A DNA stretch of 53,693 bases from a virus: the UHGV virus genome UHGV-0129084, one strand, 5' to 3'. This document shows, one piece after another, positions 5,618 through 51,615 of the stretch (the first letter of the stretch is position 1; each line of letters begins with the position of its first letter). A model generated the notes under the pieces. The model saw only the letters and a program-made list of their open reading frames with translations, searched no databases and was not told the origin of the DNA. Both the position numbers and the translations under genes were made by a program.

Positions 5618-6027
5618 TTGCTCACCTCATAGATGACCGGTCGATGGTGAGAGTCAGCTAAAGCGGCACGGAGTCGAGGATCGTGCACCAGCGCAGCGAT
5701 AAGCAGATCGCCTTTATGCTCCGCTAATGTGCGCTTAATATGCTTCTCATAACTGGTGCCATTCGGTACTAGATGAAGCCAGTCATAATCAACACCAAAA
5801 TCTTTCAGCCATCGTTTAGTGGGCGCTTCAAGAGTTTCAGAGCGGCTACTGATAAGCACCACTTCAGCCCCTGAGCGAGCAAAACCACGCAACATACGGC
5901 TGGTGGGGAAAATGAGTTCATCACCGGCAATGAATTGGCCTGCATCCGAGTCAGATACAGATTTACGATGGCTGGTATTTGCCAGCACACCTTCAATTTC
6001 GCATAAGACATACATACCTCTTGCCAT
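5614..6027 (-). CDS. Hypothetical protein, possibly HAD-like phosphatase/nucleotidase
   Basis: ORF 5614..6123 overlaps thyA; start moved to in-frame ATG at 6027 (MARGMYVLCEIEGVL), 1 nt after the thyA stop; LCEIEGVL loosely resembles HAD motif I with D->E. Confidence 0.3.
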   Translation of the reverse strand: MARGMYVLCEIEGVLANTSHRKSVSDSDAGQFIAGDELIFPTSRMLRGFARSGAEVVLISSRSETLEAPTKRWLKDFGVDYDWLHLVPNGTSYEKHIKRTLAEHKGDLLIAALVHDPRLRAALADSHHRPVIYEVSK

Positions 6028-6028
6028 A

Positions 6029-7159
6029 TCACACCGCCACTGGAACCTTGATCCACGGTAGAGGGGCATAGCCAAGAATAAGAATCTCGTCCCATTTGAA
6101 ATCATCCAGCTCAGACCATTCATTAGGGAATATAACGACCGGATCTGAATGCTCTGGAGCCTGTCGTTGCATTAGCTCACACACACCTTCCATGTGGTTG
6201 TTGTACAAATGCACGTCAAAGCCAAAATGCACAAATGCACCGGCCATGTGACCCGTAATCTTCGCGAGAAAATGAGTGAGAATGCCATAGCCAGCAATAT
6301 TGAATGGCATACCAACAAAAGTGTCTACGCTACGCTGTACGAGGCAGGAGTTGAGGATGCGTTTGGGGATTCCAAGTGCATCCAGTTCAGTTTCAGTAAC
6401 ACTGCCGTCCATCTCCAGATCGTATAGCATCTTGGTGTAGATAGACTCATAACCGAGGCGACTGTGTTGAAGACCAATGTCAGTTGCCATCGTTAAACGG
6501 GTTTCAAAATCCAGTTCACGACTCCACAAAGAGAAGACAAAGTGGCAAGGTGGCAGTTTCATATCCTCAAGCTCGCCTACGTTCCATGCGTTAAGCATGA
6601 TGCGACGATCGGTAGGGTTCGTGCGCAGTGTATCGACAATACGCTGTAGCTGATCGATTTCACGGGACAGCACTACGCGATCTTCACTGATACCCAGGTA
6701 TCCCTCGACTTTGTACCCGCGTTCACGGAAAGTAGCGATCTTGCTCAGATATTCACTATGGCTCACGATGCGGGTATCTTCCCATCGACGCCACTGCTTA
6801 CCGTAAACCGGCCCCAAATCGCCATTCTCATCGGCCCATGCATCCCAAATCTTAACGCCGTTATCCTTGAGAAATTGGATGTTGCCCGTGCCTTTCAGAT
6901 ACCACTCAAGTTCGACAAGCAGTGGCTTAAGATTTACCGCCTTTCCAGAAATAAGCGGCACAGTCCCACCAGTAAGCATGTAGTAAGAGGGAACGTAGCA
7001 GGTGCTTAAAGTACCAGTGCCTGTGCGATCATCAGCCTGCACGCCGCTTTTAAGCACCGTCTCAATAACTTTTGCATACGATGCGTTTGTTACCTGACCG
7101 TTCGTATGCTCACGATTCAAAAGGAGTGACACAAAAACCTCACAAAGATAAGTAACCAC
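6029..7159 (-). CDS. thyA: Thymidylate synthase (ThyA) with two internal insertions
   Basis: DRTGTGT, LLVELEWYLKG, GDLGPVYGKQWRRW, catalytic LPPCH; 376 aa, longer than typical ThyA. Start uncertain: ORF begins with GTG at 7159, alternative GTG at 7132. Confidence 0.85.
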   Translation of the reverse strand: MVTYLCEVFVSLLLNREHTNGQVTNASYAKVIETVLKSGVQADDRTGTGTLSTCYVPSYYMLTGGTVPLISGKAVNLKPLLVELEWYLKGTGNIQFLKDNGVKIWDAWADENGDLGPVYGKQWRRWEDTRIVSHSEYLSKIATFRERGYKVEGYLGISEDRVVLSREIDQLQRIVDTLRTNPTDRRIMLNAWNVGELEDMKLPPCHFVFSLWSRELDFETRLTMATDIGLQHSRLGYESIYTKMLYDLEMDGSVTETELDALGIPKRILNSCLVQRSVDTFVGMPFNIAGYGILTHFLAKITGHMAGAFVHFGFDVHLYNNHMEGVCELMQRQAPEHSDPVVIFPNEWSELDDFKWDEILILGYAPLPWIKVPVAV

Positions 7160-18072: not shown

Positions 18073-19128
18073 ATGAGCGAAAACGGCAATAAAAACATAG
18101 CGATCGTTGAAGCATTTTCAGAAACAGATAAAAAGACAGGCGAAGTTGTTACGTTGGTTCCTAACACTAATAACACTGTTCAGCCTGTTGCTTTGATGCG
18201 TCTGGGCCTCTTCGTTCCGACGCTGAAATCGACATCCAGAGGAAGAAAGGGGCAAATGGTCTCTATGGATGCCTCTGCTGAACTCAAACAGCTGTCTCTG
18301 GCAAAAGCCGAAGGGTACGAAGACATAAGGATCTCTGGCCTTCGGCTTGATATGGATAACGACTTTAAAACGTGGGTGGGAATAATCCACGCGTTTGCCA
18401 AACACAAGGTCGTTGGCGATACTGTCACGTTGCCGTTCGTTGAGTTTGTAAGGCTGTGTGGCATTCCGACCGCCAGGTCATCAGCGAAGTTACGCAAACG
18501 CCTGGACAGTTCGCTAAGCCGTATTGCCACAAATACCATCTCGTTCCGTAGCAAAGGCTCTGATGAGTTTTACGTAACGCATCTTGTGCAAACGGCAAAA
18601 TATAGTGTCAAGCACGATACGGTCGAACTGAAAGCAGATCCCAAGATTTTCGAACTCTACCAGTTCGACAAAAAGGTTCTTCTGCAACTCCGGGCTATAA
18701 ACGAACTCTCAAGAAAAGAATCCGCTCAGGCGCTTTATACTTTTATTGAAAGTTTGCCGCCTGATCCGGCACCAATATCACTAGCCCGTTTACGCGCCAG
18801 ACTTAATCTGACAAGTCGCACTATTACTCAGAATGCGACGGTAAGAAAGGCTATGGAACAGCTGCGAGAGATAGGATATCTCGATTACACGGAAGTTAAG
18901 CGCGGAAACTCGGTCTACTTCGTCATCCACTATAGGCGGCCAAAGTTACGCCAGGCACAAATATCAACAAAAATCGATAATGATGAGACGGAATATAGCC
19001 TCCCAGATGAGAATCAAGATGACATTATCGACGTTGTGCCTGACGAAAAAGAAGGCAAAATGGTCATGTTGAGTAAAGAAGAACTGGCGCTTCTCGAAGA
19101 GTTGCGCAAGGCAAAGACTCGCAAATAG
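18073..19128 (+). CDS. repA: Plasmid replication initiator RepA (P1/RepFIB-type, iteron-binding)
   Basis: 351 aa; [41 protein letters not shown] match what I recall of P1 RepA; flanked on both sides by iteron arrays. Confidence 0.8.
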
Positions 19129-19789: not shown

Positions 19790-20125
19790 TTATCCAACCT
19801 CCTTGCAGTCATCGAAAAGGTAGCTTTGCTGAGAAGCGTGAACGCCATAGAAGCCCTTGTATTTGTTGTATACGAAGTGGTCTTCTCCGACGCCGGTTAA
19901 TTTGCCATTACGATTTGTGAGATATGGGGATGACAACACTCGATCGTCACGCACAACATAGAACTGGTCGCCGCTGTCTACGACCATCGCTCCATATGGT
20001 GCTTTTATGACGTCGGTAAGAGCGCCATTCTTAACGTCGGCTACAGACATTTCACACTGATAAACAGTGGTGTCGGCCACAACGATCGAAGAAAGAAACA
20101 ACAGCGCGAATGGGATGGTCTTCAT
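19790..20125 (-). CDS. Secreted hypothetical protein (111 aa)
   Basis: N-terminal signal-peptide-like MKTIPFALLFLSSIVVA; start ATG overlaps the stop of the upstream small membrane ORF (ATGA). Confidence 0.5.
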   Translation of the reverse strand: MKTIPFALLFLSSIVVADTTVYQCEMSVADVKNGALTDVIKAPYGAMVVDSGDQFYVVRDDRVLSSPYLTNRNGKLTGVGEDHFVYNKYKGFYGVHASQQSYLFDDCKEVG

Positions 20126-20301
20126 GCTGCCACCTCTTTGATTACATCAAATGCTGAATTAAATACGAGCACGATAGCCAAAGCGTTTATGACTACGTCG
20201 TGCACCGGGGAAAAGACTTTACGAATGACACCAGTGAAAATGCAGTCGATGACAAAAGCTATTGAAACGATGAGTAACAAGTATTCAATAAAAATCTTCA
20301 T
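20122..20301 (-). CDS. Small hydrophobic membrane protein (59 aa), not in the supplied ORF track
   Basis: Hand-translated MKIFIEYLLLIVSIAFVIDCIFTGVIRKVFSPVHDVVINALAIVLVFNSAFDVIKEVAA; below the 60-aa track cutoff; translationally coupled to the downstream secreted protein. Confidence 0.35.
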   Translation of the reverse strand: MKIFIEYLLLIVSIAFVIDCIFTGVIRKVFSPVHDVVINALAIVLVFNSAFDVIKEVAA

Positions 20302-21152: not shown

Positions 21153-21172
21153 AGGCGTCCAACTGGACGCCT
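21153..21172 (-). terminator. Rho-independent terminator after the SPFH gene
   Basis: AGGCGTCC-AACT-GGACGCCT hairpin with T-run on the minus strand. Confidence 0.65.
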
Positions 21173-21188: not shown

Positions 21189-22019
21189 TTATTTCACTGT
21201 AATGAAAGGAGTGTTAGCCCCTTGAGTCATGTACTGCGGTAACTGGCCATTCCATTTATTGATGGCTTCCAGTTCCATAACGTTCGGGTTTTGACGCAGA
21301 GCTTCACCGCGCAGACGAATGGCGTCTGCTTCTGCTTGCGCACGAGCACGGATAGCATCAGCTTCACCATTAGCCTGTTCACGTAGCATATTCGCCTCAG
21401 CTTTACGTTGTTCAACTTCCTGCTGACGTTGCAGAGTACGCTGGTTAGCCGTTACTTTGGCGTTGATAGATTCAATGACGGTTTTTGGGTAATCAGGCTT
21501 TCCAACCCATGACAGGCTCAGTACCTCAATACCAACCGGAGACATCTCTTTCTGAATGTCTTTCAGTGCGTTGTCCAGCAATTGCGCCTTACCACCGTCG
21601 ATAAATGAGTCAGTGGTCATACGGCTGGCCAAACGGTTTAGAGAGTCGGCAATTTTCTGACGCAGATCTGATTCGGTGATATCGTCTACGCCTTTGCGAT
21701 AGGTCTGGAACACCGTCGTTACCTTGTCACGATTAACCAGATACGCAACGCCAATTTTGTGACCAATAGCAGTACCGTCACTCATCTGGAATGTGAACGG
21801 CTCGTCGTAGGTCTTCATTTGTTTGAAGGTCGGGAATACGTAAAGTTCGGTGTTAAGACCTGTCCATTGGCGACCAACGCCAACCACTTCACCGATCCCT
21901 TTGTCTTCACCTAATTTGTTTACTTTGATGCCAACGTATCCAGGCTCCACGCGATCACAGCCAGTAAGACCCATTGTGCAAATAGCCGCCAGAGCAACTG
22001 CAAGTAAACCTTTCTTCAT
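21189..22019 (-). CDS. SPFH/band-7 (HflC/prohibitin-like) lipoprotein
   Basis: 276 aa; lipoprotein signal LAAICTMGLTGC; coiled-coil C-terminus rich in A/E/R/Q typical of SPFH proteins; terminator hairpin downstream. Confidence 0.6.
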   Translation of the reverse strand: MKKGLLAVALAAICTMGLTGCDRVEPGYVGIKVNKLGEDKGIGEVVGVGRQWTGLNTELYVFPTFKQMKTYDEPFTFQMSDGTAIGHKIGVAYLVNRDKVTTVFQTYRKGVDDITESDLRQKIADSLNRLASRMTTDSFIDGGKAQLLDNALKDIQKEMSPVGIEVLSLSWVGKPDYPKTVIESINAKVTANQRTLQRQQEVEQRKAEANMLREQANGEADAIRARAQAEADAIRLRGEALRQNPNVMELEAINKWNGQLPQYMTQGANTPFITVK

Positions 22020-22022
22020 TAC

Positions 22023-22223
22023 TTATTTCCCTTTTGCTTTGATTAATGAGTTGATAAACTTACGACCAGCAATAAGACCGATTACAGGAGCACCAAAACC
22101 AACGATAACTCCAAACATGACGGCTAAATCACTCTTGGTAGAAATCAGCGACGGAACCAGTAAACCGTAGATGAGAGCCACTGAAAGGCCTGTGGCTACT
22201 GCCAATAGATAGATTTTGATCAT
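22023..22223 (-). CDS. Small integral membrane protein (66 aa)
   Basis: Two predicted hydrophobic helices; directly upstream of, and co-oriented with, the SPFH gene. Confidence 0.45.
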   Translation of the reverse strand: MIKIYLLAVATGLSVALIYGLLVPSLISTKSDLAVMFGVIVGFGAPVIGLIAGRKFINSLIKAKGK

Positions 22224-22291
22224 GTGTTTTCCTATGTGGTTGTTATGCGAAAATAATAAGTAAGTACTTATATATTTTCAAGAGATAAAAA

Positions 22292-22310
22292 AGGCGTCCT
22301 GTGGACGCCT
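22292..22310 (-). terminator. Rho-independent terminator after the RecA-like gene
   Basis: AGGCGTCC-TGT-GGACGCCT hairpin (same stem as the 21153 terminator) with T-run on the minus strand. Confidence 0.65.
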
Positions 22311-22315
22311 TGTGT

Positions 22316-23389
22316 TTACTCTTCTACTGACTCGGTGGGGTTGTCTTTTGCTCTTCGGTCGTCGATTGCCTGCAAAGCCGCAATGATTTCAGCCAGTGGC
22401 TTCTCCCGATACATCTCGACGATCTGCGATTTGGTGTATTTCTTGTCACCAATTTCAACTCGCCCGCTGGCGTTCTTTGGCAGGTATCCTTCTTCCAGCA
22501 TGTACTCGACGAGCGATTCGATAACGTCGAGGCCACGAGTAGGATCGAAGTAGAATTTCCAGGTGCATTTGCCATACGGTGGTGCAACTTTGTTTTTGAT
22601 GCATTCTGCGCCTACGTCCTGGCCGATCTTCTCTTTACCATCCTTCATCACCGATGCACCAAGACGGATACGTACAGAAGCGTAGAACTTCGGTGAATCT
22701 CCACCTGGCGACGTAGTAGGGTCGCCAAACATTACACCGATTTTTGTGCGAACCTGATTCAAGAAGATGATGCAGGCGTTGTATTTGCGTGCCCACAAAG
22801 CCAGAGTAGGGAAGTTCGCACTTGTCGCACGAGCCAGTGCCGTATTGTCGTTCATGTTTAGCTGATCTTTGTCTTTGGCAGTGCCTTCAGCCATCTTTTC
22901 GAACTTCTCGGCTTTGGAGTTCGGAACCATAGACGCAAGTGAGTCAGCCACGATACAGATAGGTGCTGATTCAGGAATAAGCTCTTCATCACGTACCAAT
23001 TTAAGAATTGTGCCGATCAACTCTACAGAGTCTTCGAAGGTATCAGGCTGCTTGTATACCCACTGACCGTCATCCTCATCTGCGTTCAGGCCATTGGCTA
23101 CAGCCAGGCCAACGTCAAAACTGTTTTCATGATCGAGGAATACCGCCAGACCATCTTGTTTTTGAGCGGAGATCATCGCTGCTGTTGCAAGGAACGTTTT
23201 CCCTGCACTTGGAGGACCGAATACTTCGACGATACGACCACATGGGAAGCCGCCATCGTAACGACCAGAAATAGCTTTGTTTAACGGAGGAAAGCCTGTG
23301 TCAATCCAATGAGTTACTTTCTGAATTTCGTCGTTGCTACCGATTTTCTTTTTCAGAGCAAGTGCCAGTGCGGATTTTCCTTTTGCCAT
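22316..23389 (-). CDS. RecA/UvsX-like recombinase
   Basis: 357 aa; Walker A GPPSAGKT, IIFLNQVR and KFYASVRIRLG segments parallel RecA. Confidence 0.75.
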   Translation of the reverse strand: MAKGKSALALALKKKIGSNDEIQKVTHWIDTGFPPLNKAISGRYDGGFPCGRIVEVFGPPSAGKTFLATAAMISAQKQDGLAVFLDHENSFDVGLAVANGLNADEDDGQWVYKQPDTFEDSVELIGTILKLVRDEELIPESAPICIVADSLASMVPNSKAEKFEKMAEGTAKDKDQLNMNDNTALARATSANFPTLALWARKYNACIIFLNQVRTKIGVMFGDPTTSPGGDSPKFYASVRIRLGASVMKDGKEKIGQDVGAECIKNKVAPPYGKCTWKFYFDPTRGLDVIESLVEYMLEEGYLPKNASGRVEIGDKKYTKSQIVEMYREKPLAEIIAALQAIDDRRAKDNPTESVEE

Positions 23390-50707: not shown

Positions 50708-50769
50708 GAAAAGTCAAATCGGGATGGCGGTTTTATATCATAAAACGCCCACACTTGGTAGGTAAGTAC

Positions 50770-51615
50770 TTACACATGAGCGCCGTAAATTGCCCCAGCT
50801 TTAGTCCAAGTTGGAGCATTACCGGTAACAGCTTTACCAGCTGCGCCACCTCCGTACAATGTCCCCACTCGTCCAGTTGCAGCGGCACCAGCAGCCCCCA
50901 CATTACCTCCACTACCGCATGTATATTGGACAGCATTAGAGCCGATCACATATTGAGCGCCAATCCCGGCAGCGGTTAGAGTGCCAGAAGTTGCCGCCCG
51001 CGAATTTGAAGCTGGTGGCCTTGTAGTGTTTGCAACACCAAACGGGCGACCGCCCCCACCCATACCACCATCGAGTGAGCTACCGCCACCGCCACCGCCA
51101 CCGCCGGCAATAGCGCCATTATTGGTTATTCTTAAACGGGTCCCAATTCCGTTGTTAATAGCAGTGCCACCGGCAGCACCGCCACCTTTAACGCCACCAT
51201 TACCGCCACGGCCATAGACAGTTACACCTGCGTTGATTACCAGGCTGATATAAGAGTTGGTAAGCGAACTTGGGAAATCTAAACATGGCACGCCGCTACT
51301 GGACGACACCAGATCCCCTGTAATGGTAACAACGACTGGCGTCGCCCCCTGGGATTTTAAATAGTTGATCAGTGTGTCTTTGTTGTAGTTATGATTCGCA
51401 CCGATGCTGTACTGAACTTCTTTAGATCGCCCGGCCATTTGAGACATTGAACCAGCCGCTGGCAGTTGCACCGCCGTTCGAGCCGCACTCATCCATCTCT
51501 GGCCTGTCACACTGACAGCCGAAGACCCAATCCAACCGGGAACACCGACAATTGGCACATCTAATCTCCTTTTTGATGTGAATATCCTGAATTGGTGAGG
51601 GTGGCCCCTCACCAT
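50770..51615 (-). CDS. Glycine-rich tail-fibre-associated protein (gp38-like adhesin, speculative)
   Basis: 281 aa; poly-Gly tracts (GGGGGGGGSSLDGGMGGGGRP) separated by short segments; immediately downstream of the tail fibre gene. Confidence 0.45.
   Translation of the reverse strand: MVRGHPHQFRIFTSKRRLDVPIVGVPGWIGSSAVSVTGQRWMSAARTAVQLPAAGSMSQMAGRSKEVQYSIGANHNYNKDTLINYLKSQGATPVVVTITGDLVSSSSGVPCLDFPSSLTNSYISLVINAGVTVYGRGGNGGVKGGGAAGGTAINNGIGTRLRITNNGAIAGGGGGGGGSSLDGGMGGGGRPFGVANTTRPPASNSRAATSGTLTAAGIGAQYVIGSNAVQYTCGSGGNVGAAGAAATGRVGTLYGGGAAGKAVTGNAPTWTKAGAIYGAHV

Follow-up and report, generated by a model that had tools for sequence, protein, structure and literature searches.

A predicted lipid-anchored SPFH protein and its two-helix membrane partner on an SSU5-like phage-plasmid of Escherichia coli

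Cages built by SPFH proteins (HflK/C, prohibitin, flotillin, stomatin and erlin) have been a major structural theme since 2022, and the presence of such a gene in a phage raises the question of what it does there. The question is addressed here with UHGV-0129084, a viral stretch of 53,693 nucleotides (the window, meaning the whole stretch that was analyzed), which is an E. coli SSU5-like phage-plasmid and encodes on its minus strand a 276-amino-acid (276-aa) SPFH lipoprotein directly downstream of a 66-aa membrane protein. The SPFH gene itself is not new: RefSeq and GenBank already name it "SPFH domain-containing protein," and hundreds of records give it the SPFH annotation. Band 7 open reading frames (ORFs) in T4-like phages were pointed out as early as 2006 (PMC1524935), and according to a 2026 paper on an N4-like phage, why a phage genome would contain an SPFH lipoprotein "remains unclear" (PMC13239085). 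Among specialists, a phage-borne SPFH gene will cause no surprise; it is the breadth of its distribution, the partner and the occurrence in model phages that make this 20-year-old annotation puzzle testable. The pair is best described as a mostly phage-borne SPFH scaffold that is lipid-anchored, made of a single type of subunit, probably periplasm-facing, and equipped with a dedicated two-helix partner.

The SPFH lipoprotein and its partner

Both ORFs had been called in the original prediction, which was made from the letters of the DNA alone, and both are confirmed at their positions. The genes and the parts of the SPFH protein are as follows:

22023–22223, minus strand: partner gene for the 66-aa hairpin membrane protein, directly upstream of the SPFH gene (ORF list, PHROG 1130)
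21189–22019, minus strand: SPFH lipoprotein gene, 276 aa plus stop (ORF list, Pfam, PHROG, AlphaFold2, Foldseek)
21957–22019, minus strand: signal peptide and lipobox, residues 1–21 (L-T-G-C21, with Asp22 at +2), read from the sequence
21393–21953, minus strand: Band_7/SPFH domain, residues 23–209 (Pfam, E = 2.6e-30)
21291–21485, minus strand: long single helix, residues 179–243, corresponding to the wall helix of SPFH cages (AlphaFold2 model and Foldseek; PHB2 and HflK match over this segment)
21192–21290, minus strand: C-terminal segment, residues 244–276, with W256-x-G258-x-x-P261 (motif alignment)

The original prediction had staked its reading on an SPFH fold, and the fold is present. The protein covers profile positions 2–176 of 176 in Band_7 (PF01145) and scores 106.2 bits, where Pfam's gathering threshold is 23.6 (E = 2.6e-30); its phage orthologous group is PHROG 200, "lipoprotein" (E = 3e-108). 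Its AlphaFold2 model, with a predicted local distance difference test (pLDDT) score of 73.7, shows strands over residues 21–95, an SPFH alpha/beta core, the 65-residue helix 179–243, then another, short helix and a tail of low confidence (with pLDDT under 50 at residues 259–276). Foldseek matches this model over its full length with prohibitin (8rrh), erlin (9vvj) and HflK/C (7vhq, 7wi3, 9cz2) at E values of about 1e-12, a probability of 1.00 and 14–18% identity; stomatin and flotillin, also full-length and at the same probability, follow as poorer matches, and so does QmcA. When a profile built from 40 diverse members of the family is compared with solved structures, it finds prohibitin-1 at 5e-10, HflK at 3e-8, PHB2 at 1e-7, QmcA at 2e-6, HflC at 5e-6 and stomatin at 0.03. 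Among the same number of diverse members, W256 and G258 are invariant and P261 is kept in at least 90%; judging from the model, the C-terminal segment 244–276 may fold only within an oligomer.

The protein had also been called a lipoprotein, and this holds. Lipoproteins were recognized by a lipobox of the form [LVI][ASTVI][GAS]C with the Cys at position 15–35 and by a Lys or Arg within the first seven residues. The N-terminus runs from MKK through a hydrophobic core to L-T-G-C21 (MKKGLLAVALAAICTMGLTG-C21), which supplies both the signal peptide and the lipobox. The lipobox Cys is kept in 18 of 19 close homologues, the D-R-V-E-P-G that follows it is invariant in the close clade, and a lipobox is present in at least 112 of 150 family representatives; members that lack it have an N-terminal signal-anchor in its place. 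The first strand of the model begins at Cys21 itself, so that no linker separates the lipid anchor from the SPFH fold.

How close is this protein to the SPFH proteins of known function? Like HflK/HflC of E. coli, which work with FtsH (PDB 7vhp, 7wi3, 9cz2), it combines an SPFH core with a long wall helix and a C-terminal cap segment, and its SPFH domain probably lies on the periplasmic face. HflK/C are among its top sequence and fold matches, and the HflC and HflK models are its best matches in NCBIfam. However, the equivalog cut-offs are missed by far (HflC, TIGR01932: 30.2 versus 134.4 bits; HflK, TIGR01933: 18.7 versus 159.4 bits), and identity is only 16–18%. HflK/C consist of two paralogous subunits with an N-terminal transmembrane (TM) helix, whereas the phage module has one SPFH gene beside the 66-aa hairpin gene, and its SPFH protein is lipid-anchored with a separate two-helix partner. 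The label "HflK/C-like" of the original prediction is thus right for the nearest superfamily branch, by profile and by fold, and wrong for orthology: the phage protein is not an HflK/C orthologue. Prohibitin (PHB1/PHB2; PDB 8rrh, 9o9z) is the best profile match (PHB1 at 5e-10, nearly full length) and the top Foldseek match; it faces the non-matrix side, topologically equivalent to the periplasm, and partners an AAA+ membrane protease. Unlike the phage protein, prohibitin is eukaryotic, heteromeric and TM-anchored, it has no small hairpin partner, and the identity is 14–16%.

Public records label the family in other ways: "serine protease" (phiP27, Stx2a phages, Erwinia phage Pastis, Kosakonia, Yersinia), "transposase" (Alcaligenes) and "outer membrane lipoprotein" (a Xanthomonas phage). 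The protease annotation is rejected because Band_7 is the only domain that Pfam detects. A known defense system is not indicated either, since PADLOC-DB 2.0 holds no family that matches either protein at E values up to 1.

The 66-aa protein consists of two hydrophobic helices (TM1, about residues 4–22; TM2, about residues 33–51), a conserved loop between them (L-V-P-S-L-I-S-T-K-S-D) and a basic C-terminal tail with five Lys/Arg. It belongs to PHROG 1130, "membrane protein" (E = 2e-25), a family filed under "moron, auxiliary metabolic gene and host takeover," and the adjacency of PHROG 200 and PHROG 1130 is confirmed for the pair in the window. The small membrane protein proposed to accompany the lipoprotein is a genuine partner: in 77 of 79 viral (IMG/VR) loci, the ORF immediately before the SPFH gene is of the PHROG-1130 kind, with three divergent sequence types among them. 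The partner is present, separate or fused, in at least 48 of 65 species-representative genomes from Gammaproteobacteria, Bacteroidota and Dependentiae, including Flavobacterium, Bacteroidales and Saprospirales. Coliphage N4 (record PMBT57; E = 1.7e-12) and a 168-kb T4-like contig (E = 3e-14) have versions that belong to PHROG 1130, and the partner also occurs in Cohaesibacter and Alcaligenes prophages. A word-indexed search with the 66-aa sequence recovers close E. coli relatives only. The sequence of the partner diverges further than that of the SPFH protein; in the P2/186-like phage P88, the partner is only 23% identical and the SPFH protein 77%. Across partners, only P24, S28 and G38 are invariant, within the motif L-x-P-x-[LM]-[IV]-S-x-x-[SD]...G. 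Since the two genes are conserved as a pair in hundreds of elements, their association is not due to chance.

The strongest link between the two proteins comes from natural fusions, which occur in 12 of 150 cluster representatives and in five further cases (P0021, P0337, P0359, L136, L142), together more than 15 independent lineages. Their order is TM1, loop, TM2, basic linker, hydrophobic segment with lipobox, and SPFH domain. Rosetta-stone fusions of this kind indicate joint action of the two proteins, with a probable stoichiometry of 1:1. By this sequence evidence the small protein appears to be an obligate partner of the SPFH protein, which is new in this analysis. The phage SPFH protein is thereby placed in a defined two-gene module with a minimal two-helix partner, probably facing the periplasm.

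The two-gene layout recalls the SPFH-NfeD operons (E. coli QmcA-YbbJ, PDB 8z5g; Pyrococcus stomatin-STOPP), in which an SPFH gene is also joined to the gene of a small membrane partner. In the phage module, by contrast, the partner comes first, has only 66 aa and lacks the oligonucleotide/oligosaccharide-binding (OB) fold of NfeD; QmcA, moreover, faces the cytoplasm and is a weaker match (Foldseek 1e-6, profile 2e-6). No Pfam family, NfeD (PF01957) included, matched the 66-aa protein, which is too short to hold TM helices plus an OB-fold. An NfeD partner is therefore rejected, and the pair is not an SPFH-NfeD operon.

At the junction of the two ORFs the window reads TAA-GTA-ATG, that is, the stop codon of the partner, three bases and the start codon of the SPFH gene. 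Programmed read-through of this junction was considered and rejected because the in-frame layout is not conserved: among the loci compared, the ORFs are in frame (TAA-GTA spacer) in the window and SSU5 only, whereas P88, N4, Cohaesibacter and Alcaligenes have overlapping ORFs in different frames. An E. coli prophage that seemed to lack the partner (L146) proved to carry an IS1 between the partner and SPFH genes; this IS1 (InsA/InsB, L146 5218–5915; chromosomal prophage of E. coli ECMA0423) uncouples the genes, as it does likewise in a Shigella flexneri locus (L145). On the P1-like E. coli O111 plasmid pO111_2, the partner ORF (MQNNPNKCRTLW...; L093, about 5800–6040) is unannotated in RefSeq and lies upstream of the SPFH gene, the pair standing among tRNA genes between dnaB (ban) and dam.

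Topology and proposed function

On which side of the membrane would the pair act? As read from sequence, the SPFH domain most likely rests on the inner membrane at its periplasmic leaflet, just over the conserved partner loop. The architecture of the fusions works only if the C-terminus of the partner is cytoplasmic and the SPFH domain periplasmic, and the basic tail of the partner agrees with the positive-inside rule. Asp22 is invariant at +2 in the enterobacterial clade, and Asp at +2 of an E. coli lipoprotein is the classical Lol-avoidance signal for retention in the inner membrane. HflK/C (periplasm), prohibitin (intermembrane space) and erlin (lumen of the endoplasmic reticulum) all face the non-cytoplasmic side of their membrane as well.

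A mechanism can be proposed on this basis, in which we infer the inner-membrane and periplasmic location as well as the assembly of a cage. The 66-aa protein would form a helical hairpin with both ends in the cytoplasm and its Pro-x-Leu-Ile-Ser-x-x-Ser loop at the periplasmic surface. The 276-aa protein would be exported, lipidated at Cys21 and held in the inner membrane by the Asp at +2, and it would then oligomerize through its 65-residue helix and its C-terminal motif into a closed ring or cage of the prohibitin/HflK type. The hairpin would be the in-membrane component, probably 1:1 with the lipoprotein since many lineages make the two as one polypeptide. By enclosing a patch of inner membrane, the cage would sequester or regulate a client protein within it. 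The client might be FtsH or another envelope quality-control factor, which is a guess, and the benefit would be a functional inner membrane in an infected or envelope-stressed cell. Taken as a whole, a periplasm-facing two-component SPFH cage that controls an inner-membrane client has, in our estimate, an even chance of being correct. FtsH as that client is speculative and, by itself, unlikely; it is the leading candidate because the nearest characterized relatives, prohibitin and HflK/C, both partner AAA+ membrane proteases, and HflK/C does so from what is probably the same side of the same membrane. If true, such a homo-oligomeric cage, held by lipid anchors and joined by a protein of only 66 aa, would offer a very simple system for studying the way in which SPFH cages interact with the membrane and with their clients.

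Carriers, gene neighborhoods and expression

Which elements carry the module bears on whether it serves the phage life cycle, competition between phages or the cell. An exhaustive search of the family gave 2,816 representative clusters at E values of 1e-3 or below and 195 at 1e-30 or below, mostly of about 280 aa, and of 50,697 phage records, 373 gave a full-length homologue with tblastn. Among the temperate carriers are Stx phages, phiP27, P1-like, P2-like, lambda-like and Burkholderia phages; strictly lytic carriers include N4 and N4-like, LUZ24-like, rV5-like, phiCbK-like and T4-like phages, jumbo Salmonella and Erwinia phages, crAss-like phages and Lak megaphages. A copy is present in 768 of 5,426 complete E. 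coli genomes (14%), in 418 chromosomal and 448 plasmid places. The module also occurs on phage-plasmids of Yersinia, Salmonella and Klebsiella, and a 108-kb contig of Y. pestis NCTC5923 (L152), presumably a pMT1-type plasmid, has the same pair with a partner sequence of the SSU5 type. The pair is thus among the more widespread accessory modules in phages of diderm bacteria, and its function can be tested directly because the module is present in the tractable coliphage N4 and in P1-, P2- and SSU5-like E. coli elements.

In the SSU5-like group, identity over the 2.8 kb surrounding the pair is 99.5% with Escherichia phage CMS-2020a, 95.6% with phage Cyrano (pLF82) and 81% with Salmonella phage SSU5; this region matches 706 plasmid records. 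According to Pfam, the genes on either side of the pair encode a RecA/UvsX-like recombinase and a DUF7238 protein, and the gene of a Rep3-type initiator follows at some distance. This agrees with the earlier view that the pair is unrelated to the neighboring RecA and replicon genes. In the Klebsiella relative pJN2-26 the pair is absent, and unrelated genes fill the slot between the RecA and Cra/Rep genes, so the pair is accessory cargo in a variable region.

A different setting is found in Dyella and other Rhodanobacteraceae, where the pair is kept at 83–92% identity over about 35 species. In at least 12 Dyella species it occupies one chromosomal slot beside nrdAB, divergent from the genes of a BlaI repressor and a BlaR1-type M56 sensor (E = 1e-51; for example, Dyella sp. 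C9, L097 3131–5444). The Dyella pair is a cellular locus and not a prophage gene, and it may be regulated by an envelope signal. Carriage by strictly lytic phages and by a bacterial chromosome implies that the function is not specifically one of lysogeny or plasmid carriage.

Several phage neighborhoods suggest superinfection exclusion or competition between phages, in which the complex would block genome entry by covering or sequestering inner-membrane channels or would guard against lysis from without. Many unrelated phages, lytic as well as temperate, carry the pair as an accessory, and the filing of the partner by PHROG under morons and host takeover also fits such a role. In coliphage N4 (PMBT57, species Enquatrovirus N4; L096 1901–3325), the pair lies directly downstream of a gene that PHROG 1510 labels "superinfection exclusion." On the T4-like contig (L092 6385–14037), the pair stands amid counter-defense-type genes, namely NADAR, Gad2 and the NAD-salvage pair of NAPRTase and phosphoribosyl pyrophosphate (PRPP) synthetase, with UvsY nearby. 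In an Alcaligenes lambdoid prophage, the CI repressor and the integrase stand on either side of it. Exclusion is usually carried out by envelope lipoproteins and small inner-membrane proteins: T4 Imm is a small two-helix inner-membrane protein, Sp is periplasmic, and T5 Llp, phi80 Cor and TP-J34 Ltp are lipoprotein exclusion factors. By analogy with these, the pair is a set of phage accessory envelope proteins in a moron-like layout. These proteins are, however, small monomeric blockers and not SPFH scaffolds, and they are not known to share sequence or fold with the pair. Neither protein has homology to a known exclusion protein or a match in PADLOC, and labels in the neighborhood such as that of PHROG 1510 are themselves unverified. 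The pair is also nearly silent in LB-grown carriers of Cyrano (see below), and its vertical descent at a fixed Dyella chromosomal locus, outside any prophage, points to a cellular function. Exclusion is the main rival of a client-controlling cage, and we consider it unlikely. Superinfection exclusion and an influence on FtsH had both been put forward in the original prediction, and both are hypotheses. A version that makes the pair a conflict device instead of a housekeeping scaffold, in which a periplasmic SPFH nanocage would enclose inner-membrane channels or effectors and thereby exclude the DNA of competitor phages or neutralize membrane-attacking abortive-infection effectors of the host, seems quite unlikely; if true, it would be the first SPFH-based exclusion or counter-defense system, common to N4, T4-like, P1-, P2-, lambda-, SSU5-like and crAss-like phages and Lak megaphages.

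The same neighborhoods bear on a device for the timing of lysis, in which a periplasmic cage would delay or tune the disruption of the envelope by holins and spanins in the manner of an antiholin. Holins and i-spanins act at the inner membrane and in the periplasm, where the pair probably lies, and N4, a carrier, is known for delayed lysis. Conversely, none of the contexts examined (window, P88, SSU5, N4 and T4-like) shows a link of the pair to lysis genes, and conservation on the Dyella chromosome is incompatible with a lysis-specific role, which makes this explanation very improbable.

How the pair is expressed can be approached from the signals around it and from data on Cyrano. In the window, the two genes are bracketed by the following features:

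22291–22311, minus strand: terminator hairpin that ends the upstream RecA-like gene and forms the upstream border of the cassette (-14.7 kcal/mol, z = -6.9)
22253–22281, minus strand: sigma-70-like promoter of the two-gene unit, TTGAAA-17 nt-TATTAT (10 of 12 consensus positions; consensus match only)
21153–21172, minus strand: terminator hairpin of the two-gene unit, followed by a T-run (-15.6 kcal/mol, z = -4.0)

The promoter sits between the hairpin of the upstream RecA gene and the small ORF, and its block is nearly invariant among the window, Cyrano and SSU5, with a conservation above that of the partner coding sequence. The original prediction had given the lipoprotein its own terminator, and the hairpin at 21153–21172 bears this out; the two translationally adjacent ORFs, the promoter and the terminator are predicted to form one autonomous transcription unit. 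The pair shows the moron traits of its own promoter and terminator and of presence or absence among related genomes.

Expression was measured in one study of Cyrano, the 95.6% identical relative, with two replicates (PMC9928086). In LB the log2(fpkm+5) values of the pair, where fpkm is fragments per kilobase per million, are 2.32/2.32 and 4.3/3.0, and within THP-1 macrophages at 6 h they are 7.61/7.70 and 7.25/7.42 (PMC9928086 S1 Table). The flanking genes stay low (RecA, 4.06; exonuclease, at most 2.9; CYRAN_58, about 4; all at most 4.2; PMC9928086), and the pair is not among the genes expressed at least fivefold over background in LB (PMC9928086 Table 1). Thus, expression from a repressed prophage, a further moron trait, is missing in Cyrano, where the pair is nearly silent in LB carriers. 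The pattern fits an autonomous, condition-induced unit and argues against a constitutive lysogenic-conversion gene.

Induction in macrophages brings in two further explanations. According to the first, the protein is a host-directed virulence or immunomodulatory lipoprotein, triacylated, released in outer-membrane vesicles (OMVs) and acting as a stimulus of Toll-like receptors 1 and 2 (TLR1/2). In the literature searched, the only phage-origin SPFH protein with experimental data was PM0222 of Pasteurella multocida C48-1, a prophage-encoded "HflK/C-like" SPFH protein of about 30 kDa, reported from OMVs and described as a TLR1/2 agonist and virulence factor (PMC9872710). PM0222 (25–35 kDa) resembles the present family in being a prophage SPFH protein of such a size and is possibly related; its deletion attenuates virulence in mice (PMC9872710), and it was studied as an agonist and virulence factor and not for a role at the bacterial membrane. 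The up-regulation of the Cyrano pair in macrophages and the presence of the module on plasmids of Y. pestis and pathogenic E. coli would also suit a virulence role. However, Asp at +2 speaks against targeting to the outer membrane or OMVs in E. coli, and the carriers include lytic phages of environmental Caulobacter, Ruegeria and Erwinia as well as soil Dyella, where host immunity is irrelevant. Any lipoprotein stimulates TLR2, so this activity need not be the selected function. We regard a virulence function as highly improbable.

According to the second, the cage is a scaffold without a client, a cage or lattice that would stiffen the inner membrane in the manner of flotillin or PspA and keep up the proton-motive force during the latent period or under envelope stress. 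This would suit the induction of the Cyrano pair in macrophages, the position of the Dyella pair next to the BlaR1/BlaI envelope-signal pair and the carriage by phages with long latency or large genomes (N4, jumbo phages, Lak). In addition, E. coli HflKC is reported to contribute to tolerance of aminoglycosides and oxidative stress (PMC10434171), which can be counted in favor of such a scaffold. Against it, the characterized structures that are closest in sequence, prohibitin and HflK/C, enclose or bind a client protease, and the strict partner loop and the invariant W-x-G-x-x-P suggest specific protein contacts and not bulk effects on lipids. A client-free scaffold is quite unlikely.

Carriage by lytic phages, the Dyella chromosomal locus beside an envelope sensor and the induction in macrophages together suggest that the pair has a general role, not specific to lysogeny, and serves the homeostasis of the inner membrane when the cell is infected or stressed. 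For the periplasm-facing cage with an inner-membrane client, by which such a role might be exerted, several points weigh on the other side. Beyond the Enterobacterales, Ser, Thr or Gly often stands at +2, and some family members may be located in the outer membrane, as sorting rules differ among taxa; PM0222, as a possibly related protein, is found in OMVs (PMC9872710). The assembly of a cage is drawn from the architecture and by analogy with every solved full-length SPFH protein, and contact with the partner from the fusions. The model is of a monomer and has only moderate confidence (pLDDT 73.7, falling under 50 at the C-terminus), the solved SPFH proteins share only 14–18% identity with the phage protein, and erlin, which is not a protease partner in the same sense, equals HflK/C by fold. 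In the LUZ24-like phage TL and the phiCbK-like phage Karma, a different small membrane ORF without homology to the partner lies upstream of the SPFH gene. A partner that is universal across the SPFH clade is ruled out by these unrelated ORFs, and the partner family is thus limited to the nearer part of the clade. Finally, the rise in Cyrano, seen in two replicates of one study of a relative, may reflect partial derepression of the prophage, since macrophages also trigger the SOS response.

Surroundings of the pair in the window

The two hairpins that bracket the cassette are nearly identical: their stem GGCGTCC/GGACGCC is found only twice in the 53.7-kb window, and the copies at 21154–21171 and 22293–22309 share the 7-bp stem and its flanks (AGGCGTCC...GGACGCCTTTTTTAT). 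These paired hairpins may be the footprint of an insertion or duplication of the cassette. A compositional island is ruled out, since the GC content of the cassette (0.40–0.50) resembles that of the flanks.

One further feature lies within the promoter:

22261–22270, no strand assigned: perfect 10-bp palindrome TAAGTACTTA in the promoter spacer, a candidate operator on sequence grounds

The palindrome is conserved in SSU5 and has one mismatch in Cyrano. Two exact copies of TAAGTACTTA occur in the window, the second about 28 kb away at 50763–50772, and with up to one mismatch there are 6 matches against 1.15 expected. An operator shared by a regulon was considered and rejected, because the second copy (50763) lies at the end of a gene and has no promoter context.

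The RecA/UvsX-like neighbor (22316–23389, minus strand) is an allele without an intein. In Cyrano (L003 3718–6057) and several plasmids, its homologue has a 422-aa insertion that opens with a Cys directly past the Walker-A motif GPPSAGK and is followed by a Thr, which identifies it as a classic intein with a LAGLIDADG homing endonuclease. On the other side of the pair, the gene at 18073–19128 (plus strand) encodes a Rep3-type plasmid replication initiator (Pfam Rep3_N and Rep3_C), labeled "replication helicase" by PHROG 775 and by the RefSeq record of SSU5. A second pair of small envelope proteins is encoded nearby at 19790–20301 (minus strand), where the gene of a 111-aa protein with a signal-peptide-like N-terminus (PHROG 2077) overlaps that of a 59-aa hydrophobic protein (PHROG 2535).

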